DNA of 64,000 nt from Candidatus Poribacteria bacterium (GTDB lineage: Bacteria; Poribacteria; WGA-4E; WGA-3G), in assembly GCA_965198235.1 (NCBI GenBank), contig OZ240248.1, positions 4,672,001 through 4,736,000 of the forward strand. Direction: 5' to 3'. The notes below the pieces were generated by a model. That model had not been told where the DNA came from and did no database searches. It worked only from the letters and a program-made list of their open reading frames with translations. Shown here piece after piece: positions 24,656 to 38,916 of this stretch (the first letter of the stretch is position 1; every line of letters starts with the position of its first letter). A program made the translations under genes and the position numbers.

Positions 24656-26113
24656 ATGAGTGACAAACCGCATGTTCTTTTGATTTCGACAGATCATTGG
24701 CCCAACTCGTTATTAGGAGTCAACGGGCATCCTGCTATCCAAACACCGACACTGGATACACTCGCTCGTGCCGGCACCCGTTTCACGCGAGGTTACAGCG
24801 AATGTCCTGTCTGTGTTCCGGCGCGAAAAACGTTGATGACCGGTACAACAACACGAACCCACAAAGATAGGGTTTTCAACGATCGGCAAGGATTAAATGG
24901 GCTCCCAACAATCGCACAGACCTTTCGGAATGCGGGGTATCAAGCCTATGCGGTCGGCAAATTGCATATCCATCCCCAGCGTGACCGCATCGGTTTCGAT
25001 GATGTGCTGTTGGGTGAGGAAGGCAGACTCCAGCACGGCGTGGTTGATGACTATGAGCTTTTCCTCGGCGATAGAGGCTATGCAGGTCAACAATTCGCGC
25101 ACGGGATGTGCAACAACGATTATCTCAACCGTCCTTGGCATCTTCCTGAAGACTGTCATGTCACAAACTGGAGCTCGCAGCAGATGGTACGGATGATTAA
25201 ACGCCGCGACCCAACTCGTCCCGGATTCTGGTATCTCTCCTATTGCCATCCACATCCACCCTTGGCACCCCTTCAGTGCTACATGGACATGTATCGCGAT
25301 ATTGACGTGGACATGCCATACTGTGGTGACTGGGCGAAACAAAACGAACGGCTACCGTTACCGCTAAAAGCGCGACAGAAACAGGACGAGCATTTTACAG
25401 AAGATCAGATTCGTTCGGCACGCCAAGCATTTTATGCCCTCTGCACGCATATCGATCATCAATTGCGGGTTGTTATCGGTACTTTACGGGAGGAAGGGTT
25501 ACTGAACAATACGATTTTGTTGTTTACCTCGGACCACGGCGACATGCTCGGAAATCATCAGATGTGGGCGAAACGGCTCTATTATGAGGATTCTACCAAC
25601 GTTCCTATGCTTCTCGTCGGCACCGCAGACGATGAACGGGTAGGACATCACAGAGTAGACGACCGACTCGTCGGATGGCAGGATGTAATGCCTACACTCC
25701 TTCATCTCGCAGGAATTGACATTCCAGATACGGTAGATGGGATACCGATGGTGGGCGACGAAAAGCGCGATTGGTTGTACGGCGAAATTGGTGAAGGCGG
25801 CAGTGCGACTCGGATGATTCATGAAGGACGCTTCAAGCTTATTTACTACGCCACTGGAAACTACCGTCAACTCTTTGATCTGGAAGAGGATCCGAGGGAA
25901 TTGAACGACCTCGCCGATTCACCGGCGCATGCTGATATACTTGAACGACTGACGAACCACCTCATAGGTGAACTGTACGGAGATGATGAAGACTGGGTAC
26001 AAGATGGTAAACTTGTCGGTCTGCCTGATCGAGCGTATCGTCCGTCTCCCAACCGCGCCTTATCAGGTCAACGCGGACTTCACTGGCCACCGTCACCATC
26101 CGCCGGGCGTTGA
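24656..26113 (+). CDS. Formylglycine-dependent sulfatase
   Basis: CVPARKTLMTG (CxPxR), GKLH, HPHPP and SDHG. Confidence 0.95.
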   Translation: MSDKPHVLLISTDHWPNSLLGVNGHPAIQTPTLDTLARAGTRFTRGYSECPVCVPARKTLMTGTTTRTHKDRVFNDRQGLNGLPTIAQTFRNAGYQAYAVGKLHIHPQRDRIGFDDVLLGEEGRLQHGVVDDYELFLGDRGYAGQQFAHGMCNNDYLNRPWHLPEDCHVTNWSSQQMVRMIKRRDPTRPGFWYLSYCHPHPPLAPLQCYMDMYRDIDVDMPYCGDWAKQNERLPLPLKARQKQDEHFTEDQIRSARQAFYALCTHIDHQLRVVIGTLREEGLLNNTILLFTSDHGDMLGNHQMWAKRLYYEDSTNVPMLLVGTADDERVGHHRVDDRLVGWQDVMPTLLHLAGIDIPDTVDGIPMVGDEKRDWLYGEIGEGGSATRMIHEGRFKLIYYATGNYRQLFDLEEDPRELNDLADSPAHADILERLTNHLIGELYGDDEDWVQDGKLVGLPDRAYRPSPNRALSGQRGLHWPPSPSAGR

Positions 26114-26131
26114 ATGACATCTCCAAATGTG

Positions 26132-26155
26132 GTAGGTGCGGTTTCCAACCGCACC
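26132..26155 (+). repeat. GTAG-type REP-like palindrome
   Basis: GTA-GGTGCGGTT-TCC-AACCGCACC. Confidence 0.65.
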
Positions 26156-26291
26156 ACTCGATCCACTTTCTCTCCGCCATCCGCGCAAATCCATAATTCA
26201 GACAATCAACGCCTATATTCCTCAATTAAAACCGTTGAATTTCTATGCCAAATGTAGTATTATCTTAACAACCATCGATTACCGAGTGGAC

Positions 26292-26393
26292 GTAGGGTGG
26301 GTTGAGTGGTTAATGACCGAGGTCCCTCAATTTATACGGAGAACACCGGCTTCCGATGATGCATTCGTATAGATATATATAACGAAACCCAAC
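26292..26393 (+). repeat. Extended GTAG REP/MITE-like element
   Basis: GTAGGGTGGGTTGAG...CGAAACCCAAC arms around an ~75 nt spacer, just upstream of hsdM. Confidence 0.4.
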
Positions 26394-26411
26394 AATCCAA
26401 TTAAAAAAGTT

Positions 26412-28022
26412 ATGGCAAAAAAGAAATCAGGCACAAACACCAATAAAAGCGGTGCAACGCTCGGCTTTGAAGCGACTTTATACCAAGCAGCCGATAAGCT
26501 CCGCAACAACATGGATGCTGCTGAATACAAGCATGTGGTGTTAGGGTTAATTTTTCTCAAATACATATCAGATTCTTTTGAGGAAAAGTACAATTTTCTG
26601 CTTCAAGAATTTGCGAATTCCGACAGTGAATTCTATATTAAAGAGGAAATCGACCGTTTCGAGTATGCAGAGGATAGGGACGAATACTTGGCAGAAAATA
26701 TCTTTTATGTCCCAGAGGAAGCGCGCTGGTCATATTTACAGGCAAACGCCAAGCAACCAGAAATTGGCACCCTGATTGATAACGCAATGCTTGCAATTGA
26801 GCAGGAAAACCCACGGCTCAAAGGTGTTCTGCCCAAAAACTACGCACGCCCAGGACTTGACAAGCAACGCCTCGGTGAACTTGTTGATCTCATCGGCACA
26901 ATCGGTTTAGGTGAAGAAGAGAATCGCTCAAAGGATATACTGGGCAGGGTTTACGAATACTTCCTTGCACAATTTGCCAGTGCCGAAGGCAAAAGAGGCG
27001 GGCAATTCTACACACCTCGCTGTGTTGTGCAGCTCCTCGTTGAGATGCTCGCGCCATATCAAGGACGGATTTACGACCCGTGCTGCGGTTCAGGCGGGAT
27101 GTTTGTTCAGAGCGAAGCGTTCGTCGAAGCACACGGTGGGCAGCGCGATGATATCTCTATCTATGGGCAGGAGTCTAACCCAACCACGCGGCAATTAGCA
27201 CTGATGAACCTCGCTATTCGAGGCATTGAGGCAAATCTCGGACAGGAACACGCCGACAGTTTCCATGACGATATGCACCCAGACTTGAAAGTCGATTACA
27301 TTCTCGCCAATCCGCCCTTCAACAGTAGCGATTGGGGCGGTGACAGGTTACGTGAAGATAGACGTTGGGTTTACGGCACTCCGCCACCCGGCAACGCTAA
27401 CTTTGCGTGGGTGCAACACTTTATCTATCACCTTGTTCCAAACGGCATCGCTGGATTCGTGTTAGCAAACGGTTCAATGAGCAGCAATACTGCTAACGAA
27501 GGCGAAATTCGCAAGAAAATTATCGAAGCCGACTTGGTGGACTGTATGGTTGCATTGCCCGGTCAGCTTTTCTATTCTACATCAATTCCTGTCTGTCTCT
27601 GGTTTATTGCAAAGAGCAAACAACACCATCATTTTCGCACGCGAACCGGCGAAACGCTATTCATAGACGCTCGCAGCTTAGGAACCATGATTGATCGGAG
27701 GCACCGAGAGCTCACTAATGCAGAGATCACGCGCATTGCCGAAACCTATCACACATGGCGAGGCGATGTGGATGCAAGCGAATATACCGACGTGCCCGGT
27801 TTCTGCAAAAGCACAACCCTCGCAGAGGTAAAAGAGCAGGGTAACGTCCTAACTCCTGGACGTTACGTCGGTGCAGAAGTGCAAGAAGAAAATAGCGAAC
27901 CCTTTGAGGACACGATAGCACACTTGACTAAGAAATTGACCGAGCAGATGACAGAGGCAAGGCGATTGGATGATGCTATTGCTAAAAATTTGGATATACT
28001 CGGATTTGGAGAGGATTCATGA
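26412..28022 (+). CDS. hsdM: Type I R-M methyltransferase subunit
   Basis: [21 protein letters not shown] (motif I), NPPF (motif IV, m6A). Confidence 0.97.
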
Positions 28023-29812
28023 ATTTCAGTGATGAGAAAATCAAACGCCAAATGCGCTTAGGCGAGGACAGTCACTGGGAATTCAAGGAAATCGTGTTCG
28101 CAGGAGACGTTCCGAAAAGTCCCAGTCGTCACGATCTGGCGGATGAACTCGCCGCTTTTGCTAACACGGATGGCGGGGTGGTCTTGTGTGGTGTAACCGA
28201 CGGCGGCGATGCCCATGGCATGTCACGCAAGCAGATGGATGCGCTCGAGCAACTCTTGACCGAAATTTGCACCGATATGGTTAAACCGCCAATTCGACCT
28301 ACCATCCTTCGTAAGGAAATAGAGGAGGATAAGTCGTTCCTCTTGGTTGAGGTCGGTCAGGGACATACGCAGCATGATAGTCCCGGTGGCAGTTATCACC
28401 GAGTTGGTAGCTCAAAACGCAAAATGACGAGTGATGAACGATTGCGTCTGGCACAGCGGCGTGGGCAGGCACGCTTCCTATGGTTTGACAAACAGCCGGT
28501 CCCGGGAACAGGTTTTGGAGCGTTGGATGAATCCCTTTGGAAACCTTTGTTGAGTGCTGAAGGTGCCGCTGCGCCTGAATTGGCATTGGAGAAGATGGGA
28601 CTCCTGACCAGTGACGAGAACGGGACTCTGCGCGCTACCGTGGCAGGTGTTCTATTGGGCACCCGTTCCCCCGAGGAGTGGCTCCCCAACGCCTGCATCT
28701 CTGCAACCTGTTACCGTGGCAAAGACCGCGCCTCTGGACAAATAGACACTCAGACAATTACCGGTCCCTTGAACCGACAAATTGCTGAGGCGGTTGCCTT
28801 TGCTGTACGTAACATGCGTGTCGGTGCCTACAAAAACCCTGCGCGCACCGACTTGCCCCAATACAGCGAAAAAGCACTGTTTGAAGCGATTGTCAACGCT
28901 GTTGTCCACCGCGATTATGCAATTCGCAGCAGTCAGATTCGGATATCAATGTTCGCTGACCGGATTGAAATAAACTCCCCCGGTGGTTTACCAAACAACC
29001 TTACGATTGATAGCATGGATGTCCGACAATCAACGCGGAACGAAGCACTTGCTTCGAGACTCAGACAAATACCTGTTGGAGATATCCATGGCTCCGGCGA
29101 GCGGCAATTCTTCATGGAGCAGCGTGGGGACGGTGTGCCAACGATCTTTCGTGAAACGAGGGGTTTGAGTGGGAAATCCCCCAAGTACCGCCTCATTGAT
29201 AATTCAGATCTGTTTCTTACTATTCCAGCCGCTGAAACAGAATCTACACCTGCAACCACTGGTATTCTTGTCCATTACAATAGCAGTCCGCTGCCCGGAG
29301 TTGAACTATTGGTCTTGTTTCCGAATAAGACATGGAAACGCGCAACCACCGACGAAAATGGCAAAGCACAAGTCGATTTGCACATGACGCACCTTCCGAT
29401 GACGGTGTTCGCGTCCGCCCCCGGTTTTGCTGCACACCTTGAACACGATTGGGTGCCAGAACAGGCGGAACTTGAAATTAAAATACAAAGCCTCCCAGAT
29501 GGCGGGTCGGTAATTTTCCCCGAAGCAACAGGTAACATTCCAGGGTTATCTGGACGTTTGAATCCTACTCGCGATACCCAGGACCGGACCTATCTCTACG
29601 CCTCAAATATCGCTATTAACGAAGGACAACAGCAGCCTGTTACTTTTATTCCTGGAGACGATTTACACCTAACGGATGCCAATGGAAGAGAATTGATGGT
29701 GCGCATCGTTGCTATCATCGGCAGGTCGGCATTGGTCGAATATCGTGCTGATACCAAAGGAGATGAAAATGACAGTGAAAGAATTAGTAAAATTTCTCGA
29801 AAAATATCCTGA
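28019..29812 (+). CDS. Schlafen/AlbA_2 + HATPase_c_4-like protein with beta-rich C-terminal domains
   Basis: [21 protein letters not shown]; [22 protein letters not shown]; ATGA overlap with hsdM. Confidence 0.85.
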
Positions 29813-30011
29813 TGATTTGCGCGTTGTTGTCAACGGTTATGAGGACGGTTTCGACGACATCTCACCGGAACGGATTTCCACCACAAAACTACAGTTAGAT
29901 GTTGGAGCCCACGATTGGGAAGGCCAACACAACGTTCCACCCAATGTTGGCAAATCAACGGATGATGCCAAGATTGTAGAGGCATTGGTTTTCCGCCGCG
30001 CGTCCTACTAA
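29769..30011 (+). CDS. Small hypothetical protein (phage-like MTVKEL..YPDD family)
   Basis: AAAGGAG RBS 6 nt before ATG 29769; 80 aa. Confidence 0.7.
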   Translation: MTVKELVKFLEKYPDDLRVVVNGYEDGFDDISPERISTTKLQLDVGAHDWEGQHNVPPNVGKSTDDAKIVEALVFRRASY

Positions 30012-30039
30012 TGCAGTAGTTTGAAAACAATTCACAGAG

Positions 30040-31347
30040 ATGGTTATGATGTTTGATTTTCCCGATGGATGGCAGCTTGGATCTGTTGAGGATAGCATGA
30101 AAGCAATTATTGACTATCGCGGTAAAACACCGCGCAAAACACTCTCTGGTATTCCGTTAATTACGGCAAGAATTGTCAAAGATGGTCGGATAATGACTCC
30201 TACTGAATTCATCGCTTCCGAGGGTTATGATTCATGGATGAATCGGGGTCTACCGGAACCAGGTGATGTCGTCATGACGACGGAAGCTCCTTTGGGCGAA
30301 ATTGCACAGATTAATAGTTGTAAAGTTGCTCTTGGTCAACGCCTTATCACTTTGAGAGGCAAACCAGATTTGTTAAACAATACTTATCTCAAGTTTGCAA
30401 TGCAGACAACGTTTGTGCAAAACCAGTTGAAGGCAAGAGCCACAGGCACAACGGTTCTGGGCATTTCTCAGCGCGAACTTAGAAAGGTTGAAATACCTCT
30501 CCCGCCTCTTCAAGAACAACACCGCATTGCTCACATCCTCGGCACGCTTGACGACAAAATTGAACTCAACCGACAGGTGAATGAAACCCTGGAAGCAACA
30601 GCACGGGCAATTTTCAAATCGTGGTTTATAGACTTTGACCCTGTGAAAGCAAAGATAGAGGGACACAAACCCGTAGGTATGGACACTAAAACAGCCTCTT
30701 TATTTTCATCTGCGTTCCAAGATTCTCCACTGGGGAAGATCCCGAAGGGATGGCAGGTTGGAACGATTGATGAAGATTTCAATCTTACAATGGGACAATC
30801 GCCGCCTGGATCCACGTACAACGAAGATGAAAAAGGGTTGCCATTTTATCAAGGTCGAAAGGATTTTAGTTTTCGGTACCCAACGCGGAGGGTTTATTGC
30901 ACCTCACCAAAACGATTTGCTAAAAAAGGCGATACGCTTGTCAGTGTTCGTGCGCCTGTAGGCGATGTTAATATGGCGAATGAAAAGTGCTGTGTCGGTC
31001 GCGGTTTAGCATCGCTACGACATAAAACTGGGAGTCGATCTTATACCTACTACGCCATGCAATTTTTGCAGGAAATTTTTTCTCGTTACGAAGCAGAGGG
31101 AACAGTTTTTGGATCAATCAACAAGACAGACTTTCAAACACTTTCTCAACTCAGACCATTCAATGAAATCATTGAAGTATTTGAGCGTCTCATTCATCCT
31201 TTGGATCAATCTATTGAGAATAACGAACATGAATCCGACACCCTTTCCCAAATCCGAGACATGCTGCTGCCGAAGTTGTTGTCTGGAGAAATTCGTGTGG
31301 ATGATGCCAATGAGATATTGGAGGTAAAAGATGGCGGAAAATCCTAA
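30040..31347 (+). CDS. hsdS: Type I R-M specificity subunit
   Basis: Two TRDs with conserved PPLQEQHRIAHILGTLDDKI and RDMLLPKLLSGEI regions. Confidence 0.95.
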   Translation: MVMMFDFPDGWQLGSVEDSMKAIIDYRGKTPRKTLSGIPLITARIVKDGRIMTPTEFIASEGYDSWMNRGLPEPGDVVMTTEAPLGEIAQINSCKVALGQRLITLRGKPDLLNNTYLKFAMQTTFVQNQLKARATGTTVLGISQRELRKVEIPLPPLQEQHRIAHILGTLDDKIELNRQVNETLEATARAIFKSWFIDFDPVKAKIEGHKPVGMDTKTASLFSSAFQDSPLGKIPKGWQVGTIDEDFNLTMGQSPPGSTYNEDEKGLPFYQGRKDFSFRYPTRRVYCTSPKRFAKKGDTLVSVRAPVGDVNMANEKCCVGRGLASLRHKTGSRSYTYYAMQFLQEIFSRYEAEGTVFGSINKTDFQTLSQLRPFNEIIEVFERLIHPLDQSIENNEHESDTLSQIRDMLLPKLLSGEIRVDDANEILEVKDGGKS

Positions 31348-32842
31348 AGTGTTCATCTCATATTCTCACGATTCCCCAGAGCATAAACGGTGGGTATCTG
31401 AACTTGCTGCGCGACTTCGCCACAACGGAATTGATGCAATACTCGATCAATGGGACCTCGGACTGGGCGATGATATAACGCGATTCATGGAACGCGGCAT
31501 CGTGGACGCTGATAGGGTGCTGGTCATTTGCACGGATCAGTACGTAAAAAAAGCGAACGCTGACGAAGGCGGGGTCGGCTATGAACGGATGATCGTAAAC
31601 GCCGAACTTGTTCAGAATTTAGGAACAGACAAATTTATTCCTATCATCCGTCAGGCATCAGGAAGGAAAAAAACACCGATATTCTTAGGAACCCGATTCT
31701 ATGCTGACTTTAGAAATGACAATCAATTTAATGCGGAATGTGAAAAATTAATTCGTGAGCTTCACGAAATGCCTATTGTAGAGAAACCACCTTTAGGAAA
31801 AAGTCCATTCCGTTCTGTGGAACCTGACACACAACCGACTGAGATACCAGAGGAGGTTAAATCTGCATCAGTAGCTTACAAAACAGCGTCTAAACTCGTT
31901 CGTGCTGGCGATACACTTGGATGGCGGCAACTCATCAAGAAAATTCGAGAACCTATATTCAAATCTTTGGTCCAATGGCGACAAGATGAATTAGATGGAC
32001 AAGAACCTGAAGACAAAAAACAATTAGTTCAAGTTGTGGATAAAGCGGTTGAAATTGTTTCACCCTTAATGGCTATTGCTTTAGTAGGTGTTGAATCCGG
32101 TAGGGAAGAATTTAGAGACCAAAAATCTTTGCTTGATGATCTGCTAAATATTACTGGATGGAATCGTAGTGGGTACGAAGCTTGGGTAGACATTCCCAGC
32201 GCGTTAGGGTATGTGTACCATGGTCTGCACGGGAGTATTAGTCTAAGTACAAATCAGATGGATATTGCCCTGAATCTTTCGCGAGTGAAAATCCCTAATC
32301 CATATATAACAAAACCTCCTCAGGTCTGGGAAAGAAGTGATCTTATGGGGTGGGCGGACTCGTTTGGTCCAAGTTGCATAGAAGGTTGGAATTATTTAGC
32401 CAATGCTTATGAAAGAGAAGGATGGGAGTGGTTGCCTCTAATATTCGAGAATGATCAGAAATATCGAACTACGCTGGTAGCATATTACATGGCATTGAAC
32501 ATCCATGAATTAGCCTCTATAATTGCTTCAGGCCAACAGGATACGTTAAACAGAAATTTCAACTCAATGTCTCCATTTGGTTTTAATGTCCCATTGACTT
32601 TTATGTCTGAAGAACAAGGCATAAACCAACGTGCGACTTCTGTATTACTTCGTAATCCAGAAGCACTTGCAGAATTATGGACTAGCTTAAATGTGAGACG
32701 TGAACAAATTGAAATTTCATGGAGAAATTGGGTTAGTCTATTTGGAGTTTGGTTAAGGAATGTCTATGGATTCGTATCTCATGGAGAAGAAATTCGTGCT
32801 CGAAATATTGTGCATCATAAGGATTTTTTTCAGCAGTTGTAA
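31331..32842 (+). CDS. TIR/SEFIR domain protein with unknown helical C-terminal domain
   Basis: KVFISYSHD, LDQWDL, GVGYE (putative catalytic Glu85), FIPI. Confidence 0.85.
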   Translation: MAENPKVFISYSHDSPEHKRWVSELAARLRHNGIDAILDQWDLGLGDDITRFMERGIVDADRVLVICTDQYVKKANADEGGVGYERMIVNAELVQNLGTDKFIPIIRQASGRKKTPIFLGTRFYADFRNDNQFNAECEKLIRELHEMPIVEKPPLGKSPFRSVEPDTQPTEIPEEVKSASVAYKTASKLVRAGDTLGWRQLIKKIREPIFKSLVQWRQDELDGQEPEDKKQLVQVVDKAVEIVSPLMAIALVGVESGREEFRDQKSLLDDLLNITGWNRSGYEAWVDIPSALGYVYHGLHGSISLSTNQMDIALNLSRVKIPNPYITKPPQVWERSDLMGWADSFGPSCIEGWNYLANAYEREGWEWLPLIFENDQKYRTTLVAYYMALNIHELASIIASGQQDTLNRNFNSMSPFGFNVPLTFMSEEQGINQRATSVLLRNPEALAELWTSLNVRREQIEISWRNWVSLFGVWLRNVYGFVSHGEEIRARNIVHHKDFFQQL

Positions 32843-32964
32843 CCTTATCTTTTGTTTTGTTAAACTTCTTGAACAATCCTTGACTTGCCAAATTCGACAT
32901 GGATTTACGAAAATAGATGTCGAAAACAATTGGTTTTAGGGATCGGAAAATAGCAGGGATAAAG

Positions 32965-34635
32965 ATGTCAGAAAATCCCAAGGTTTTCATCTCATATTCA
33001 CACGATTCTCCGGAACATAAACAGTGGGTATCTGAACTCGCTGTAAAACTCCGTCACAATGGCATTGATATGACACTTGACCAATGGGATATTCGACCGG
33101 GTGATGATATAACCCGATTCATGGAACGCGGCATCGTAGACGCTGATAGGATTTTGGTTGTTTGCACAGATAATTACGTGAGCAAGGCGAACACAGGCGA
33201 GGGCAGTGTAGGCTATGAGCGAATGATTATAACAAAAGAAATTGTTGAAAATCAGGGAAATAACAAATTTATTCCTATAATTCGTCAGACGGAATGGGAG
33301 GATAAAACTCCAGAATTTTTGAAAAATCGAGTTTATATTGATTTTACGGACGACAGCCAATTTGATGAGAAATTTGCGGAATTGCTTCATGAACGTTTGT
33401 TAGTCCTGCCCTTACAAAGACCATCGGTTCCACATATTGAGGCATTGCGTGTGAGGAACTACCGAGCATTACAGGATATAGAATTGAAACAACTTAAATC
33501 GTTAACTGTCTTTTTAGGTCCAAACGGCAGTGGAAAATCAACGCTTTTTGATGTGTTTGCGTTTCTTGCTGAATGTTTCACGGACGGGCTGCGCCGTGCT
33601 TTGGAGAAAAGAGAAGGTTTCAATGAACTGAGGACACGCGGCTGTGATGGACCAATTGCATTTGAGTTAAAATATCGCGAGGAACCCGGAACACCAATTA
33701 TTACCTATCATCTTTCCATCAATGAAAACCCAGAAGGTCCCTTTGTTGAAACCGAGTGGCTGCAATGGCGACGCGGGAGTCGCGGAAAACATGTGCGTTT
33801 CCTCAATTTTCATCACGGAAAAGGCAGTATAATTCCTGGCGAAACACCCGATAAAACAGATAAACCCATTGATGAGCAACTGGATGATCCCACAACGATC
33901 GCAGCAAGTATGTTTGGTCAATCCACGCATCACCCGCGCCTCGGTGCCTTTCGACGCTTTATTACAGATTGGTATCTCTCCGACCTTTCTACCGATGCCA
34001 CGCGCCAAGCAACCAACGATGGACCGCAAAAGCGATTATCTCCAACAGGGGACAACTTGCCCAATGTTATCCAGTACTTGCAGGAAAGATACCCAGAACG
34101 TTTGGAAAAAATTATATCTTCTCTGTCAAATCAAGTGCCTCGCTTAGAAAAGGTTGACACAGAATTAATGATGAGTGGTCGCCGCCTGCTAAAGATTAAA
34201 GATGCCCCGTTTGAACAACCCATCTTGGCAAAGTTCGCCTCCGATGGCACATTGAAGCTGCTGTCATACCTGACACTGTTTCATGACCCACAACCGCCTC
34301 AATTGATCGGTATTGAAGAACCGGAGAATTACCTGCACCCACGCCTGCTGACAGGTTTAGTCGGCGAGTGCCTTGAGGCCCTAATGTTCTCTCAACTCAT
34401 AATTACCACACATTCACCGCGGTTCGTCAATGAACTTCGTGCTGAGGAAGTGTGGGTACTGTATCGGGATGAGCAAGGTTTCACAGTTTGCAAACGCGCC
34501 TCGGAGATGTTGGGAATAGAGCAGCTTTTGGATGCAGGTGCGAAGTTGGGACAACTCTGGATGGAAGGTCACTTTGAATTTGGTGATCCCTTAACCAATG
34601 CAGGCGGCCCAAAGCGAGGTGTGCGTGCACATTAA
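32965..34635 (+). CDS. TIR/SEFIR - ABC (AAA_21-type) ATPase fusion
   Basis: N-terminal KVFISYSHD...SVGYE; Walker A GPNGSGKS, signature ASDGT, Walker B IEEPEN, H-loop TTHSP. Confidence 0.88.
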   Translation: MSENPKVFISYSHDSPEHKQWVSELAVKLRHNGIDMTLDQWDIRPGDDITRFMERGIVDADRILVVCTDNYVSKANTGEGSVGYERMIITKEIVENQGNNKFIPIIRQTEWEDKTPEFLKNRVYIDFTDDSQFDEKFAELLHERLLVLPLQRPSVPHIEALRVRNYRALQDIELKQLKSLTVFLGPNGSGKSTLFDVFAFLAECFTDGLRRALEKREGFNELRTRGCDGPIAFELKYREEPGTPIITYHLSINENPEGPFVETEWLQWRRGSRGKHVRFLNFHHGKGSIIPGETPDKTDKPIDEQLDDPTTIAASMFGQSTHHPRLGAFRRFITDWYLSDLSTDATRQATNDGPQKRLSPTGDNLPNVIQYLQERYPERLEKIISSLSNQVPRLEKVDTELMMSGRRLLKIKDAPFEQPILAKFASDGTLKLLSYLTLFHDPQPPQLIGIEEPENYLHPRLLTGLVGECLEALMFSQLIITTHSPRFVNELRAEEVWVLYRDEQGFTVCKRASEMLGIEQLLDAGAKLGQLWMEGHFEFGDPLTNAGGPKRGVRAH

Positions 34636-35248
34636 ATTCTTCTTGGAGGAGCCCTCTGCTGAAGAAGCATTAAAGCACCTCTTACCCAAGATTTTATTAA
34701 AAGATGTCAGTTATGAATTTCATACTTTTCAAGGAAGAGACGAGATGCTCAAAGAATTGCCAAAGCGTTTGAAAGGAGAACAATGGATACCTAACGACTG
34801 GCGAATTGTTGTACTTATTGATGAGGACCGTGAAGACTGCCACCAACTGAAAGAAAAATTAGAGACGGCAGCACACGAAGCAGGTTTTGTGACAAAATCC
34901 AGCGCGTTTCCAAACGCAGATTTTCAGGTCGTCAACCGATTGGCAGTTGAAGAATTAGAAGCATGGTTTTTTGGAGATGTTGAAGCTTTGCACGCAGCTT
35001 ATCCCAGAGTCTCAATAAATCTCCAATATCAGGCAAGATATCGAAACCCTGATGCAATCCCTGGCGGCACGTATGAAGCATTAGAAGACTTGCTCATGCA
35101 GAAAAACTACTATAAGGGACGGATATCCAAACCTACGGTGGCACAGAACATTGCACAACACATGGAACCGAGTCAGAACAGATCGAAAAGTTTTCAGGTA
35201 TTTGTTGAGGGACTCAAGGCATGCGTAGGAGAGGAATCGTTGGTATAA
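34625..35248 (+). CDS. DUF4276 / TOPRIM-like putative nuclease
   Basis: FLEEPS, LIDED (DxD), EELEAWFFGD and NRSKSF; overlaps ATPase stop. Confidence 0.82.
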   Translation: MHIKFFLEEPSAEEALKHLLPKILLKDVSYEFHTFQGRDEMLKELPKRLKGEQWIPNDWRIVVLIDEDREDCHQLKEKLETAAHEAGFVTKSSAFPNADFQVVNRLAVEELEAWFFGDVEALHAAYPRVSINLQYQARYRNPDAIPGGTYEALEDLLMQKNYYKGRISKPTVAQNIAQHMEPSQNRSKSFQVFVEGLKACVGEESLV

Positions 35249-35266
35249 GAACATTGGGGCAATAAC

Positions 35267-38200
35267 ATGAATCTCAATACAATTTACGAATCCGATATCG
35301 AAGAAGCCTCGCTTGACTGGTTAGCTGATTTGGGTTATACCGTTTTACACGGTCCTGACATCGCCCCGGACATGCCCAATGCTGAACGTTCCACTTACAA
35401 CGAAGTAATTTTGACAACCCGCTTACGAGATGCAATTGCCCACCTAAACCCACAAATACCTGCCGATGCACAGGAAGAAGCAATCCGTAAAGTGCTTAAT
35501 CCAGATTCGCCTGCTTTGGTTCAGAACAACCGTGCATTTCATCTGATGCTGGTGGACGGAATAGAGGTTGAATATCAGCAGCCAGACGGGACAATACGTA
35601 GTGGACAAGTGAGGTTAGTCGATTTTGATACGCCGAAAAACAACAACTGGCTGGCAGTTAACCAGTTCACAGTAGTGGAAAAAAGCGATCGCCGCCCGGA
35701 CCTCGTCCTGTTTATCAACGGACTCCCTTTAGCCGTAATTGAGCTCAAAAACCCAACCGATGAGAAAGCCAGCGTCCTAACCGCCTTCCGCCAAATCCAG
35801 ACCTACAAACAAGAAATCCCTACCTTATTCACCTACAACGAAGCGATCCTCATTTCTGACGGATTGGAAGCTCGCATCGGATCTTTAACCGCTGATACGG
35901 AATGGTTTCTGCCGTGGCGGACAATCGAAGGGGAGGACGAAGCACCATCAACTGATTTAGAACTGGAGGTATTGATTAAAGGTGCCTTTGAGAAGCACCG
36001 ATTTCTGCGTTATCTCAAACACTTCATCGTTTTTGAAGAAACCGAGGGTGGGGCGATTGGGAAAAAAATCGCTGGTTATCACCAATTCCACGCAGTCAAA
36101 ACAGCAGTTGATACCACTGTCCAAGCCTCGCGCCCGGAAGGAGAACAACAGTGTGGTGTTGTCTGGCACACACAAGGTTCAGGCAAAAGCTTAACGATGG
36201 CGTTTTATGCCGGTAGCATCATCCAGCACCCGCAGATGGAAAATCCAACTCTCGTCGTTATCACCGATATGAATGATTTAGACGATCAACTCTTCGGCAC
36301 ATTTGCTCGGTGTCAGCAGCTCCTGCGGCAAACCCCCGTACAGGCAAAAAACAGGAAGCATTTGCGTGAACTCCTGAAGGTCGCCTCTGGTGGTGTAGTC
36401 TTTACTACGGTTCAAAAATTTTTTCCTGCAGGTGAGGAAACTCGTTTTCCGCAACTGTCCAATCGGCGTAACACCGTACTTATCGCGGACGAAGCGCACC
36501 GTAGCCAATACGGTTTTATTGACGGGTTTGCCCGTCATATACGCGATGCACTTCCCAACGCCTCTTTCATCGGTTTTACCGGCACGCCGATTGAACTCAC
36601 AGATCGCAATACCCGTGCGGTTTTTGGGGATTACATTAGCATCTATGACATCCAACGGGCGGTTGATGACGGTGCCACCGTTCCAATCTTCTACGAAAGT
36701 CGCCTTGCCACAATTGAACTTGACGAGGATGAAAAGCCTCACATTGATCCCGAATTTGAGGACGTTACCGAAACTGAGGAGGTAGCACAGAAAGAAAAAC
36801 TCAAAACCAAATGGGCACAACTTGAAGCGTTGGTCGGAACGGAAAAACGGTTGGGACTTATTGCTGATGATATAATTGCCCACTTTGAAGAACGGTTGGA
36901 GACGATAGACGGTAAGGGGATGATTGTTTGTATGAGCCGTCGCATCTGCGTTGACCTCTACAACGCGATTGTCAAACGCCGTCCAGAATGGCATGACAGC
37001 GATGACAAAAAAGGCGTAATAAAAGTTGTGATGACAGGTTCTGCTTCTGATGATGTATCGTGGCAGCCGCATATCCGAAACAAGGCGCGGCGCGAGGAAA
37101 TGGCAGTTCGATTCAAAAATCCCAATGACTCGCTGAAACTTGTCATTGTCCGTGATATGTGGTTAACCGGATTTGACGCGCCGAGTCTTCACACCATGTA
37201 TGTAGACAAGCCGATGCGTGGACACGGACTGATGCAAGCGATTGCCCGCGTCAATCGCGTATACCGCGACAAACCCGGCGGTTTGATTGTAGACTACATA
37301 GGGATTGCTTACCATCTAAAACAGGCATTACAGAATTACACTGGAAGCGGTGGAAAAGGAAATGCTACCCTTAATAAAGCCGAAGCAGTCGCCGTAATGT
37401 TGGAGAAATACGAGATCTGTTGTGGACTCTTTCATGGATTTGACTGGTCGCCTTGGGTTACTGGGAACGCTGAAGATCGAATAAGATTACTACCACCAGC
37501 ACAAGAACATATATTGGCACAAAAGGATGGCAAAGAGCGTTTGCTGGGAGTGGTTACTGAGCTCTCTAAAGCGTTTGCATTGGCTGTCCCAGACGCAAAA
37601 ATAACTGAGATTCGCGACGATGTCGCCTTTTTTCAGGCGGTAAGAGGCGTTTTAGCAAAACCCTCAACTGCTGAAGAAACACAGTATGAAACTACAGAAC
37701 AAGCGATTAAGCAGTTGGTATCCAAAGCAGTCGTTTCCGAGGGAGTGGTTGACATCTTTACCGCCGCGGGATTGGAAAAGCCCGATGTCTCAATTCTCTC
37801 CGACGAATTCCTCGCAGAAGTCCGGGATTTACCCCATAAAAACGTGGCGATTGAACTCTTAGAGAAACTGCTTAATGATGAAATTAGAACTCGCTCACAG
37901 AAAAATGTTGTACAAGGACGTTCATTTGCAAGTATGCTGGAACGCTCAATTCGCACCTACCAGAACCGGGCAATTGAAGCGGCACAAGTAATTGAAGAAC
38001 TCATCGAAATCGCAAAAGAGATACGTCAAGCGCAAGAACGAGGTGACGACTTAGGGCTTTCAGATGAAGAATTAGCATTTTATGACGCACTTGAAGTTAA
38101 CGATAGCGCGGTCAAGGTGTTGGGTGATGAAACCTTGCGAACCATCGCCGTTGAACTTGTAGAAACCGTTCGACAGAACGTGAGTATTGACTGGACAATG

Positions 38201-38341
38201 AAGGAGAGTGCCCGCGCGAAGATACGAGTAATGGTGAAGCGCACCCTTCGCAAACACCGCTACCCAAGCGACAAACAAGCGAAAGCTACCGAAACCGTTT
38301 TGGAGCAGGCCGAAGTGTTGTGTAAGGATTGGGCAGCGTAG
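35267..38341 (+). CDS. hsdR: Type I R-M restriction subunit
   Basis: PD...IELK nuclease motif, [18 protein letters not shown] and QAIARVNR. Confidence 0.97.
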
Positions 38342-38450
38342 AAGAGTGAAAACAATTCATTCTGAGATCTAAGGCACTCCTTTTTTCTTCTATTCAGCAG
38401 ATATCGCATGTTCCAAAAACTGGATAGTTCCTAAAAAGGCACTAAAAACC

Positions 38451-38479
38451 TTGACAAAATTTTGGAAATTAACTATATT
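38451..38479 (+). promoter_or_regulatory. Putative sigma70 promoter of the STAS gene
   Basis: TTGACA-17 nt-TATATT. Confidence 0.6.
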
Positions 38480-38562
38480 AACCTATTGAAAATCTCTTTG
38501 TTAGGGCATAACTTGTAAGCCCGTATTCGCTCCTAATGTGAGCAATTAAGAAAGGAAAATAG

Positions 38563-38916
38563 ATGTTAGCAGAAATTCGTCAAAGAGAAGGGGTCATCGT
38601 TATTCGACCCACCGGCCGCATGATTGGTGCGGCAAATGCTGAAATTAGAGAGCAAATTAATGAGGAACTGGAGGAGCATTTTGACTCCCCAAAGGTTATC
38701 TTTAACCTCGAGAATGTTACCCGTATGGACAGTAGCGGCCTCGGCACGCTGGTATCTGTGAACGTGACGGTTTCCCGCAAAGGCGGACGGACGGCACTCG
38801 TCAACGCAGGCGCACATATCCGCAACCTTCTCATTCTCGGACGCTTAATGAGCGTCTTTGAGAACTACAATAGCGAAGAAGAGGGAATTCTCGCCCTAAC
38901 CTCTGAGGAGAGCTAA
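38563..38916 (+). CDS. STAS domain anti-sigma factor antagonist
   Basis: FNLENVTRMDSSGLGTL. Confidence 0.92.
   Translation: MLAEIRQREGVIVIRPTGRMIGAANAEIREQINEELEEHFDSPKVIFNLENVTRMDSSGLGTLVSVNVTVSRKGGRTALVNAGAHIRNLLILGRLMSVFENYNSEEEGILALTSEES

Follow-up and report, generated by a model that had tools for sequence, protein, structure and literature searches.

A SEFIR–ATPase fusion inside a type I restriction-modification locus

The DNA analysed here (the window) is a 64 000-nucleotide stretch of a genome of Candidatus Poribacteria, which are sponge symbionts. It contains a three-gene cassette: a stand-alone bSEFIR gene (503 aa), a SEFIR::HEC-01A fusion (556 aa) and a HEC-01B/DUF4276 gene. The features of the locus, with E-values for profile matches, are:

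26412–28022 (+): hsdM, type I restriction-modification (R-M), a 536-aa ORF named from our own reading of its sequence
28019–29812 (+): gene with SLFN_AlbA_2 (Pfam, 4.5e-19) and HATPase_c_4 (Pfam, 3.6e-19) domains
30040–31347 (+): hsdS, specificity subunit, an ORF whose last 17 nt overlap the start of bSEFIR
31331–32842 (+): stand-alone bSEFIR, 503 aa (PADLOC bSEFIR, 1.3e-78; Pfam TIR_2, 7.4e-24)
31334–33408 (+): cassette inserted by comparison with unfused alleles (four unfused loci aligned locally; GC content)
32965–33408 (+): fused SEFIR domain (SEFIR2), fusion residues 1–148, 68% identical to the SEFIR domain of bSEFIR (SEFIR1)
33409–34635 (+): HEC-01A ABC ATPase part, fusion residues 149–556 (HEC-01A, 4e-153)
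34598–35248 (+): HEC-01B/DUF4276 Toprim-type partner (DUF4276, 4.8e-32; HEC-01B, 1.7e-84)
35267–38341 (+): hsdR, type I R-M, a 1024-aa ORF

The fusion and DUF4276 are placed between hsdS and hsdR, here and in most related loci, an embedding that the earlier note on this DNA had overlooked. Counterparts of hsdM (76–93% identical) occupy the equal position in Poribacteria loci and full-length counterparts of hsdR (82–90% identical) lie directly 3′ of DUF4276 in related loci, while the R-M genes are missing from four of 18 fused loci. The SLFN_AlbA_2/HATPase_c_4 gene, embedded between hsdM and hsdS, is separate from the fusion. Scans of positions 26000–38800 returned 20 promoter and 13 terminator sites, against 19.9 and 13.7 in shuffled sequences, which gives no basis for placing an operon boundary.

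The longest frame of the fusion gene opens at 32917. We took 32965 as the start, which is backed by alignment with the upstream paralogue and with orthologues that open M-x-x-N-P-K-V-F-I-S-Y-S; the stop codon is 34633–34635. As first read from the sequence, this gene joins a SEFIR/TIR_2 domain in frame to an AAA_21 ATPase. Pfam places TIR_2 at residues 7–141 (4.5e-27), SEFIR at 5–139 (6.3e-15) and AAA_21 at 180–489 (3.2e-30), and PADLOC assigns residues 1–143 to bSEFIR (1.3e-70) and 156–541 to HEC-01A. The latter match covers positions 2–404 of 406 in model PDLC04182, whereas only positions 35–179 of 412 in the bSEFIR model are covered, after which the ABC ATPase replaces the C-terminal domain. 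Against the PDB, the fused domain matched BcSEFIR (5y8e; 7e-28, approx. 40% identity) far better than any TIR chain (best 6e-5).

The suggestion that the ATPase retains its natural N-terminus at the junction was borne out: unfused Poribacteria relatives begin M-P-Q-Q-T-V-P-H-I-E-S-L-R-V-K-N-Y-R-A-L, and DNA homology to them restarts at approximately 33409, codon 149 of the fusion. The SEFIR glutamate and the Walker A, signature and Walker B-region motifs of the ATPase are likewise present. Among 121 sequences (the window protein and 120 cluster representatives), Glu85 is found in 119, Walker A K191, the signature S426-D427-G428 and E451 in all, and E452 in 120; Walker A spans residues 185–193, the signature 426–428 and the Walker B region 447–454. 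Glu85 is also nearly invariant among bSEFIR relatives, down to 37% identity, and aligns to a Glu in BcSEFIR. A catalytic role for the conserved Glu is known from TIR enzymes, and by analogy we infer one for SEFIR Glu85. Alphafold2 (AF2) modelled most of the ATPase part with pLDDT above 90 and a Rad50/SMC-head/PtuA-like fold (Z-scores 20–22), while the Glu85 loop (residues 80–86) has pLDDT below 50 in the models of both the fusion and bSEFIR. In these models the layout of the fusion mirrors that of bSEFIR, with the SEFIR domain first, a low-confidence linker (148–153 in the fusion, 148–167 in bSEFIR) and a large C-terminal module.

The Toprim-like partner overlaps the ATPase stop, as already noticed in the initial reading. 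With ATG 34598 as its start the overlap measures 38 nt; with GTG 34625, the counterpart of the ATG in most orthologues, it measures 11 nt. It was identified by HEC-01B model PDLC04202. DUF4276 has been described as a Toprim domain with catalytic-type residues, here E17/E18 and D75-x-D77, which do not vary among the 30 loci (of 37) whose match is uninterrupted. The identity of the cassette's parts is close to certain: these are known defence parts in a new combination, and not a new kind of system.

The fusion is real and conserved

The possibility, raised by the earlier note, that the fusion is an assembly chimera is ruled out. All of the best 120 protein clusters, drawn from many assemblies, are full-length SEFIR/TIR_2 + AAA_21 fusions (538–645 aa, 76–100% identity), and a near-full-length match (70–100% identity) occurs in 30 of 176 Poribacteria genomes, belonging to genera g1, g6, g11 and g15 in two families of one order. 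None of the 30 full-length genome matches is interrupted or has an internal stop listed, and several of these genomes are single-contig chromosomes. Three runs, each from a different study, supplied contigs that span the junction at 33409 with more than 31 nt on either side: an RNA-library contig (X3; 985 nt, 32841–33825, one mismatch) and contigs of runs X1, possibly the source sample, and X5. The RNA-library contigs leave two of 30 bins (33846–34113) uncovered, a gap to which we attach no meaning. On this evidence it is scarcely conceivable that the frame was mis-called and that the two domains reside on separate molecules.

SEFIR2 has a pairwise omega of 0.19, SEFIR1 of 0.076 and the ATPase of 0.12 (105 pairs of 15 loci each, dS about 1), indicating at the sequence level that the fused SEFIR evolves under purifying selection. 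No block anywhere in the protein is less conserved than the BB-loop region of SEFIR2 (residues 41–50; mean 0.52), and residues 36–60 have an omega of 0.26, with indels in some loci. In SEFIR1, by contrast, the BB-loop region is nearly invariant.

Relation to known defence systems

By its profile matches the module is HEC-01, a PADLOC candidate, and not PARIS. HEC-01 (Hma-embedded candidate 01, PADLOC-DB v2; Payne et al. 2024 preprint, doi 10.1101/2024.01.29.577857) shares with it the order of an ABC ATPase followed by a Toprim-like DUF4276 protein and the nesting in another multi-gene defence system, here type I R-M. It differs in that the window gene adds an N-terminal SEFIR and an upstream bSEFIR. 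The passages on HEC-01 in the preprint make no mention of a TIR or SEFIR fusion. In the sole published test (doi 10.1101/2024.01.29.577857), HEC-01 lacking a SEFIR gave no defence in E. coli against the phages tried; the earlier description of the SEFIR as a second effector on a PARIS-like module thus assumes that the module is active.

PARIS, which pairs the AriA ABC ATPase with the DUF4435 Toprim protein AriB (Burman et al. 2024, PMC11464382), has the same two-gene logic, in which an ABC ATPase is combined with a Toprim-class nuclease. A PARIS-like identity was not upheld: the partner here is DUF4276, and AriA models match the ATPase at 5.6e-29 and 2.9e-21, far weaker than HEC-01A. No AriA chain was returned by the PDB sequence search (E ≤ 0.01) or was among the fold matches listed (Foldseek, VIA), which were dominated by SMC, Rad50 and PtuA, so that some similarity to AriA may have gone unlisted. 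AriB is absent from the 14 PADLOC families that were listed as matching the partner (E ≤ 0.01). In PARIS the nuclease, once released, cleaves tRNA. PARIS is also often found on satellites or phages, whereas a viral-contig scan with the fusion, whose reach is limited to close relatives, found no relative.

bSEFIR defends as a single gene by depleting NAD+ (Millman et al. 2022 preprint, doi 10.1101/2022.05.11.491447; Osterman et al. 2024 preprint, doi 10.1101/2024.02.11.579819), and depletion runs through the N-terminal SEFIR domain. It protects against phi29, and the SEFIR-interface mutant D40A loses defence. The fusion has an N-terminal SEFIR of the same family and the same order of effector first and larger module second, but where bSEFIR has an alpha-helical C-terminal domain the fusion has an ABC ATPase with its own nuclease partner. 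In Foldseek, the ATPase part matches PtuA of Septu and retron PtuA–PtuB best (E 6e-15), tied with SMC and Rad50 heads. Septu was rejected as an identification: its partner PtuB is an HNH protein instead of a Toprim-type DUF4276, identity is 12–17%, and PtuA models score weakly (5.7e-17 and worse).

Origin of the fusion

Just upstream of the fusion lies a complete bSEFIR gene, which had escaped notice and whose SEFIR domain is 68% identical to the fused one. It comprises a SEFIR domain (residues 1–147), a disordered linker (148–167) and an all-alpha C-terminal domain (179–503); the PADLOC match spans model positions 35–285 and so includes the C-terminal feature of bSEFIR. The AF2 model (pLDDT 81.9) matched 5y8e in Foldseek (TMt 0.80). 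For the C-terminal domain, Foldseek against the PDB returned only SEFIR/TIR chains, none matching this domain, and the ESM Atlas yielded unnamed clusters alone (0.89–0.92).

Homology to unfused loci continues through the 3′ end of hsdS to position 31333 before it restarts at the ATPase. The intervening segment of approximately 2.1 kb contains bSEFIR from codon 2 to its stop, a 122-nt spacer and the second SEFIR with its own start and linker; it is inserted exactly at the ATPase start codon and ends with the second SEFIR. Its GC content is 0.38–0.43, compared with 0.45–0.53 in the flanks. bSEFIR and the fused SEFIR therefore came as one cassette, a joint arrival not recognized before.

SEFIR1 and SEFIR2 are separated by a single branch (support 100/99), a split that fits one old duplication retained as a pair. 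SEFIR2 of the window and of four related loci (L013, L025, L005 and L031) is 65–72% identical to the window's SEFIR1, compared with 50–63% for other SEFIR2 copies, and gene conversion between SEFIR1 and SEFIR2 in this subclade was considered as a possible contributor. We infer that a second copy of bSEFIR, made by duplication, shed its alpha-helical C-terminal domain and was joined, at the ATPase's start codon, to a resident HEC-01 ATPase, which would now occupy the place of bSEFIR's presumed sensor domain.

Possible control of the SEFIR domain by the ATPase

The best-supported mechanism, judged from sequence comparison, is one in which the ATPase takes the place of the presumed bSEFIR sensor and controls an NADase together with the Toprim nuclease; we advance it tentatively, at a little less than even confidence. 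An ABC ATPase dimer or oligomer would sense a phage cue, possibly an attack on restriction, given that the module sits inside an R-M operon. Ocr, an anti-restriction protein, triggers PARIS (PMC11464382), which makes the site of the module within an R-M operon suggestive. ATP-dependent engagement of the heads, or oligomerization, would then gather the N-terminal SEFIR domains into an NAD+-cleaving assembly, and the same switch would free or activate the Toprim-type DUF4276 nuclease. The stand-alone bSEFIR upstream could act in parallel or co-assemble.

Conservation of the fusion, purifying selection on SEFIR2, retention of the motifs of the fusion and of DUF4276, the defence activity of bSEFIR, the cassette boundary at the start codon, the layout parallel to bSEFIR and the separate TIR_2 + AAA_21 fusion in Magnetococcus all point towards gating by the ATPase. 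On the other side stand the inactivity in E. coli of HEC-01 lacking a SEFIR against the phages tried, the apparently accidental REC-like::ATPase fusion described below, the derivation of Glu85 catalysis from TIR enzymes together with the low pLDDT of its loop, and the variable BB-loop of SEFIR2, which is unexpected if SEFIR2 requires the same self-assembly surface as SEFIR1. HEC-01 is a widespread candidate system, and a natural bSEFIR/HEC-01 fusion offers a handle on both; with the fused SEFIR, NAD+ loss would serve as an easily measured read-out of the cue that the HEC-01 ATPase senses.

The arrival of bSEFIR and the fused SEFIR as one cassette raises another reading, less likely but a serious competitor: that the fused SEFIR serves chiefly for docking, coupling two systems by heterotypic SEFIR–SEFIR contacts. 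Either ATPase sensing would nucleate the bSEFIR NADase, or the bSEFIR sensor would signal to the ATPase and on to the DUF4276 nuclease. SEFIR domains serve in animal IL-17 signalling, where the IL-17 receptor and Act1 couple through SEFIR–SEFIR contacts. An intact bSEFIR lies directly upstream in 15 of 18 fused loci and in none of 15 unfused Poribacteria loci, 14 of which lack the gene while one has a broken copy. This association is inseparable from kinship and physical linkage, and as such is no evidence of functional dependence; in five independent pairs, two to three pointed in the same direction and none in the opposite (sign test p ≥ 0.25). The old SEFIR1/SEFIR2 duplication, kept paired, fits a docking role, as do the loss of defence in the D40A interface mutant of bSEFIR and the freedom of the BB-loop face of SEFIR2 to vary while other blocks are conserved, which is expected if one docking face matters. 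The near-universal retention of Glu85, on the other hand, is unneeded by a pure adaptor.

Variant loci also bear on docking. In a recurrent variant (L006, L007), a SEFIR-less protein consisting of the C-terminal domain adjoins the fusion, so that the ATPase bears the locus's only SEFIR, as if sensor and SEFIR were divided over two proteins. Such proteins form 10 clusters (345–357 aa, mutual identity 63–88%), intact and with a common N-terminus, but the L006 gene is broken into two ORFs. One fusion (L008) lacks any bSEFIR, although DUF4276 is missing there too and Asp takes the place of the Glu. In three related loci, a GHKL/HATPase_c/REC-like set precedes the ATPase, and in one (L039) a REC-like, signal-receiving domain is fused to the ATPase at the equal position, although its Pfam match falls short of the gathering score (27.4 versus 30.2 bits). 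A complex prediction for bSEFIR (503 aa, alignment A3) with the fused SEFIR domain (residues 1–150 of A2), run without controls, scored 0.01 against a mark of 0.32 and counts neither for nor against binding. A more specific proposal, less probable still, is that bSEFIR and SEFIR::HEC-01A form a signalling pair in which one phage cue fires both NAD+ depletion and the Toprim nuclease, the C-terminal-domain-only variant being a split bSEFIR with its sensor in trans. If the docking reading is true, the locus would provide a bacterial example of SEFIR–SEFIR signalling between proteins.

A rearrangement hot spot between hsdS and hsdR

The gap between hsdS and hsdR is a rearrangement hot spot, holding, in different genomes, one to three tandem bSEFIR copies, the REC-like::ATPase fusion, an 854-aa open frame that joins hsdS to the ATPase, and broken genes. 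The REC-like::ATPase fusion looks, from its sequence context, like a one-off deletion between neighbour genes, so the ATPase N-terminus may just tolerate such accidents. The SEFIR fusion could then be a by-product of deletion or recombination in a crowded site, persisting by linkage, with SEFIR2 adding nothing. Such frequent rearrangement would favour this reading, as would the at least five changes between fused and unfused states required on the ATPase tree and the abundance of unfused alleles, which are at least as common as fused ones (at least 48 places among the matches listed, compared with 30 fused genomes). We nevertheless consider it improbable, as SEFIR2 has kept an omega of 0.19 over a dS of about 1, the frame is uninterrupted throughout the best 120 clusters and the 30 genomes, Glu85 persists in all but two sequences, and two families of the order carry the fusion, with identity as low as 70%.

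Gating by the ATPase stays the preferred account of the fusion, and the site itself is informative. Over 176 genomes of one phylum, it shows defence genes rebuilt within an R-M operon in two ways, through the exchange of a cassette at a start codon and through deletions by which neighbour genes become fused. Sister species hold matched unfused alleles at the same chromosomal site, ready controls for the fused ones.

Occurrence beyond the Poribacteria fusions

The claim that the ATPase/DUF4276 pair is usually seen without a TIR held when the 150 best representatives (50% identity) were compared: apart from the Poribacteria fusions, relatives are approximately 400 aa and unfused, save one from Magnetococcus sp. 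DMHC-1 (P0199, 630 aa). We found no description of a SEFIR/TIR–HEC-01A or TIR–AAA_21–DUF4276 fusion in the literature, where supplementary tables or Krishnan et al. 2020 may hold one. P0199 resembles the window protein in carrying an N-terminal TIR_2/TIR domain on an AAA_21 ATPase (33% identity), but its domain is a classical TIR and not of SEFIR type, and its linker is longer. It is a singleton, with one of the best 120 clusters around it fused. As this fusion is unrelated to that of Poribacteria, the combination of TIR_2 and AAA_21 arose at least twice.

Gene content and domain assignments

The fused gene lies in a co-directional row running from hsdM to hsdR in the window, and the whole island is flanked by two further genes named by sequence resemblance:

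24656-26113, sulfatase-like gene, flanking the island
26412-28022, +, hsdM ORF
28019-29812, +, SLFN_AlbA_2 + HATPase_c_4 gene, 597 aa (Pfam 4.5e-19 and 3.6e-19)
29769-30011, +, small conserved ORF, ~80 aa, between the SLFN gene and hsdS
30040-31347, +, hsdS ORF
31331-32842, +, bSEFIR, 503 aa (PADLOC bSEFIR 1.3e-78, model positions 35-285 of 412)
32965-34635, +, SEFIR::HEC-01A fusion (longest frame from 32917)
34598-35248, +, DUF4276 gene (Pfam DUF4276 4.8e-32; PADLOC HEC-01B 1.7e-84)
35267-38341, +, hsdR ORF
38563-38916, STAS-domain gene, flanking the island

Residues 5-141 of the fusion match Pfam TIR_2 (4.5e-27) and SEFIR (6.3e-15), and residues 180-489 match AAA_21 (3.2e-30); the top PADLOC families are bSEFIR on residues 1-143 (1.3e-70) and HEC-01A on 156-541 (4e-153). 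These assignments agree with the earlier note, which had described the ORF as a TIR/SEFIR domain joined to an AAA_21 ATPase; it had overlooked both the restriction-modification (R-M) frame and the adjoining paralogue, as the gene directly upstream is, by its PADLOC match, a complete bSEFIR.

HEC-01 was originally described as an ABC ATPase that pairs with a Toprim protein and lies nested in Hma and other systems; it gave no protection from the phages tested, and its authors regard its ATPase as differing in structure from the PARIS one (doi 10.1101/2024.01.29.577857). The pair had previously been likened to PARIS. However, the PARIS partner AriB is DUF4435, and the PARIS paper names DUF4276 solely in the legend of a tree, as a family of its own (PMC11464382), whereas the partner of the window ATPase is DUF4276, and both genes match HEC-01 models; PARIS membership was therefore rejected. 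DUF4276 is described as a Toprim member and a homologue of Mad4 in the methylation-associated defence system. For bSEFIR, protection of B. subtilis against phi29 is reported, abolished by D40A, a mutation in the predicted SEFIR-SEFIR interface. The fusion combines two known kinds, HEC-01 and bSEFIR, and forms no new category. No SEFIR- or TIR-fused HEC-01 was found described in the literature listings and main-text passages searched.

The fusion is real and lineage-restricted

The junction is bridged by contigs from three runs of three studies (one of which, X1, may be the source sample) with the fusion intact, and an assembly chimera, the outcome that the earlier note saw as fatal to it, is in practice excluded. 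Sponge metatranscriptome contigs, which are no proof of transcription, include one of 985 nt that spans 32841-33825 with one mismatch and another (34398-35257) that crosses the ATPase/DUF4276 overlap.

The best 120 of 8000 scored proteins all measure 538-645 aa, with both sets of domains present and 76-100% identity to the query. A one-genome-per-species scan yielded 36 loci: 31 from named Poribacteria, one from an 'uncultured bacterium', one from Desulfuromonadales and three from Elusimicrobia. Across the phylum, 118 of 176 genomes gave a match at E <= 1e-30, and 30 a near-full-length fused match at 70-100% identity (genus g1, 11; g6, 13; g11, 1; g15, 5; two families). Unfused ATPases, 62-85% identical and starting at query residue ~118-154, occupy 48 places among the matches listed, four being second copies in genomes that also carry the fusion. 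The window's own genome has no SEFIR copies beyond the two of the locus. We conclude that the fusion is real, conserved and lineage-restricted.

Outside Poribacteria, the best 150 representatives of ATPase relatives are unfused save one Magnetococcus protein (P0199), which carries a classical TIR; its relatives are in turn all unfused, with one fused cluster among the best 120 around it. This bears out the expectation that an AAA_21 + DUF4276 pair usually lacks a TIR. Another search entry, P0202 (880 aa), is a TPR + pentapeptide-repeat protein whose internal SEFIR (359-499) is 70% identical to the fused one, so the fused-SEFIR type is also combined with other partners.

A two-SEFIR cassette inserted at the ATPase start

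The domains of the stand-alone bSEFIR (SEFIR1) and of the fusion (SEFIR2) share 102/150 residues (68%). Their DNA likeness starts at the ribosome-binding region and ATG, which places the fusion start at 32965, and fades near codon 147. Unfused relatives open with M-P-Q-Q-T-V-P-H-I-E-S-L-R-V-K-N-Y-R-A-L, the very sequence that the earlier note had taken for the natural ATPase N-terminus, which confirms that reading. In local alignments with four unfused loci, homology runs through the end of hsdS up to 31333, the bSEFIR ATG, which corresponds to the unfused ATPase ATG, and restarts at ~33409, fusion codon 149. Compared with unfused alleles, the window therefore holds ~2.1 kb of inserted sequence (31334-33408), made up of all bSEFIR codons from the second to the stop, 122 nt of spacer, and another SEFIR that has a start of its own and whose frame stays open into ATPase codon 2. 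The GC content of this insert (0.38-0.43) is the lowest of the region (surroundings 0.45-0.53).

A low-depth contig (3.46) of run X1 joins window 33370 via 39 other letters back to 31776, linking a fused-type SEFIR end to the point where the bSEFIR C-terminal region begins; this contig may represent a co-occurring strain with a SEFIR2-type domain heading a full bSEFIR.

Comparative anatomy of the locus

Window proteins were mapped onto the 36 loci plus the window. The Poribacteria-type loci (n = 33) divide into 18 fused and 15 unfused. An intact bSEFIR lies directly upstream of the fusion in 15 of the 18; in two (L006 and L007) that place is taken by a bSEFIR C-terminal domain without SEFIR, broken into two ORFs in L006 (6789-7873) and intact in L007 (6828-7880, 350 aa). 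This SEFIR-less family forms ten clusters (345-357 aa, mutual identity 63-88%) with a common N-terminus and is therefore a stable gene form, for which decay is not the sole explanation. Fused locus L008 has neither bSEFIR nor DUF4276, and has Asp at the position of Glu85. DUF4276 is uninterrupted in 16/18 fused loci. R-M genes are absent from four (L005, L007, L010 and L012), where the three-gene module is on its own between the flanking sulfatase-like and STAS genes, which shows it to be separable from R-M. Among unfused loci, 14/15 have no bSEFIR, the ATPase following hsdS or the flanking sulfatase-like gene directly, and L029 has a broken one. Several sister species carry, between the same flanks, the module without R-M or R-M without the module, which marks the site as a chromosomal defence hot spot.

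Further arrangements occupy the hsdS-hsdR gap. Locus L044 (2096-6740) lacks the ATPase and has bSEFIR in three tandem copies; L041 has two copies, then GHKL, REC-X and an unfused ATPase; L042 has one in an otherwise L041-like layout; L040 has a broken bSEFIR and an unfused ATPase; and L043 (family f3) is identical in layout to the window. From tandem arrays such as those of L041 and L044, the bSEFIR + SEFIR::ATPase cassette could plausibly have arisen. In three related species (L039, 4470-8333; L041; L042) the gap holds a GHKL-type HATPase_c_3 protein, a HATPase_c protein and a REC-like domain. The L039 copy of this domain matches Pfam Response_reg at 4e-6 (27.4 bits, under the cut-off of 30.2) and is joined to the HEC-01A ATPase as a 556-aa protein, apparently by a comparable event that involved another neighbouring gene; in L041 and L042 the domain sits in a separate 315-362-aa gene. 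In L024 (6684-9245) and in genome G155, hsdS and the ATPase form one 853-854-aa open frame, a third fusion kind at the ATPase N-terminus.

Evolution and selection

In a DNA tree of 34 SEFIR domains, one branch (support 100/99) splits the 16 upstream from the 18 fused copies, which fits one old duplication. In the ATPase tree, fused and unfused alleles are intermixed, and well-supported branches force at least five state changes. A single origin with this scatter points either to spread of the cassette in whole alleles, exchanged by recombination within conserved flanking sequence of hsdS and the ATPase, or to its repeated loss; repeated invention is not indicated.

Nei-Gojobori estimates (15 loci, 105 pairs each) gave ω of 0.076 for SEFIR1, 0.19 for SEFIR2 and 0.12 for the ATPase in fused and unfused sets alike. 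SEFIR2 is clearly constrained, yet looser than SEFIR1. Its loosest stretch is residues 36-60 (ω 0.26); no block of the entire fusion is less conserved than residues 41-50 (0.52), which have indels in some loci. That the fusion is a neutral by-product without SEFIR2 function is improbable, being hard to square with this ω and with frames that stay uninterrupted in 30 genomes from two families.

Motifs and predicted structure

Among 121 sequences (the window protein plus 120 cluster representatives), Glu85 is retained in 119, K191, S426-D427-G428 and E451 in all 121, and E452 in 120. TIR NADases have a catalytic Glu, and by analogy Glu85 is the putative catalytic residue of the fused SEFIR. The AF2 model of the fusion (pLDDT 88.8, pTM 0.76) has a flavodoxin-like SEFIR/TIR fold (1-147), connected by a linker of low confidence (148-153) to an ABC ATPase that is modelled confidently; the Glu85 loop (80-86) falls below pLDDT 50, as it does in the bSEFIR model. 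In a sequence search the fused SEFIR matched the Bacillus cereus SEFIR crystal structures 5y8e/5y8f (7e-28), a Glu of which aligns with Glu85, while TIR chains match weakly. By Foldseek, the ATPase part is similar to PtuA from Septu and retron systems (E 6e-15, TM about 0.4); with VIA-align, SMC heads, Rad50 heads and PtuA tie at Z 20-22 over ~280-320 residues. The bSEFIR C-terminal domain (179-503) is modelled as all-alpha and matched neither a PDB fold nor a named Atlas cluster.

The DUF4276 gene starts at ATG 34598 or at GTG 34625, the ATG position of most orthologues; with either, it overlaps the ATPase stop, as had been noted. Of 37 loci, 30 have an uninterrupted match to it, and in all of these, outgroup phyla included, the Toprim-type residues E17/E18 and D75-x-D77 are unchanged. 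A sequence search for a solved structure of a DUF4276 relative found none.

Possible roles of the fused SEFIR domain

We favour a sensor swap, to which we give slightly less than an even chance and in which the ABC ATPase sits where the bSEFIR C-terminal domain sat and governs the SEFIR domain. A phage cue would drive ATP-dependent head engagement or higher-order assembly, clustering SEFIR domains that would then cleave NAD+, and this switch would also turn on the DUF4276 nuclease, giving a two-effector abortive response. Architecture, conservation, selection and motifs are observed; the biochemical steps are all inferred.

The main rival, which we consider rather unlikely, is that SEFIR2 is chiefly an adaptor linking the ATPase to bSEFIR. 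The inheritance of SEFIR1 and SEFIR2 as one block speaks for it; against this, their linkage is physical and a test of independent pairs was powerless. The diverged, intact SEFIR-less family beside fusions, the freedom of the BB-loop face of SEFIR2 to vary and the ability of a REC-like receiver domain to take the same position on the ATPase also favour an adaptor; near-universal retention of Glu85 speaks against it. Sensor swap and adaptor are not fully exclusive, and co-assembly of both SEFIRs in one NADase filament would satisfy both. The locus offers a natural series of fused and unfused alleles and a possible case of SEFIR-SEFIR coupling between defence proteins.

Other genes of the island

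The small ORF at 29769-30011 has no Pfam match; counterparts occur in many related loci (60-81% identity), with an apparent one ahead of hsdS in Elusimicrobia locus L035. The SLFN_AlbA_2 + HATPase_c_4 gene, which looks like another embedded defence candidate, is likewise found between hsdM and hsdS in many loci of Poribacteria and at a different place of the island in some.
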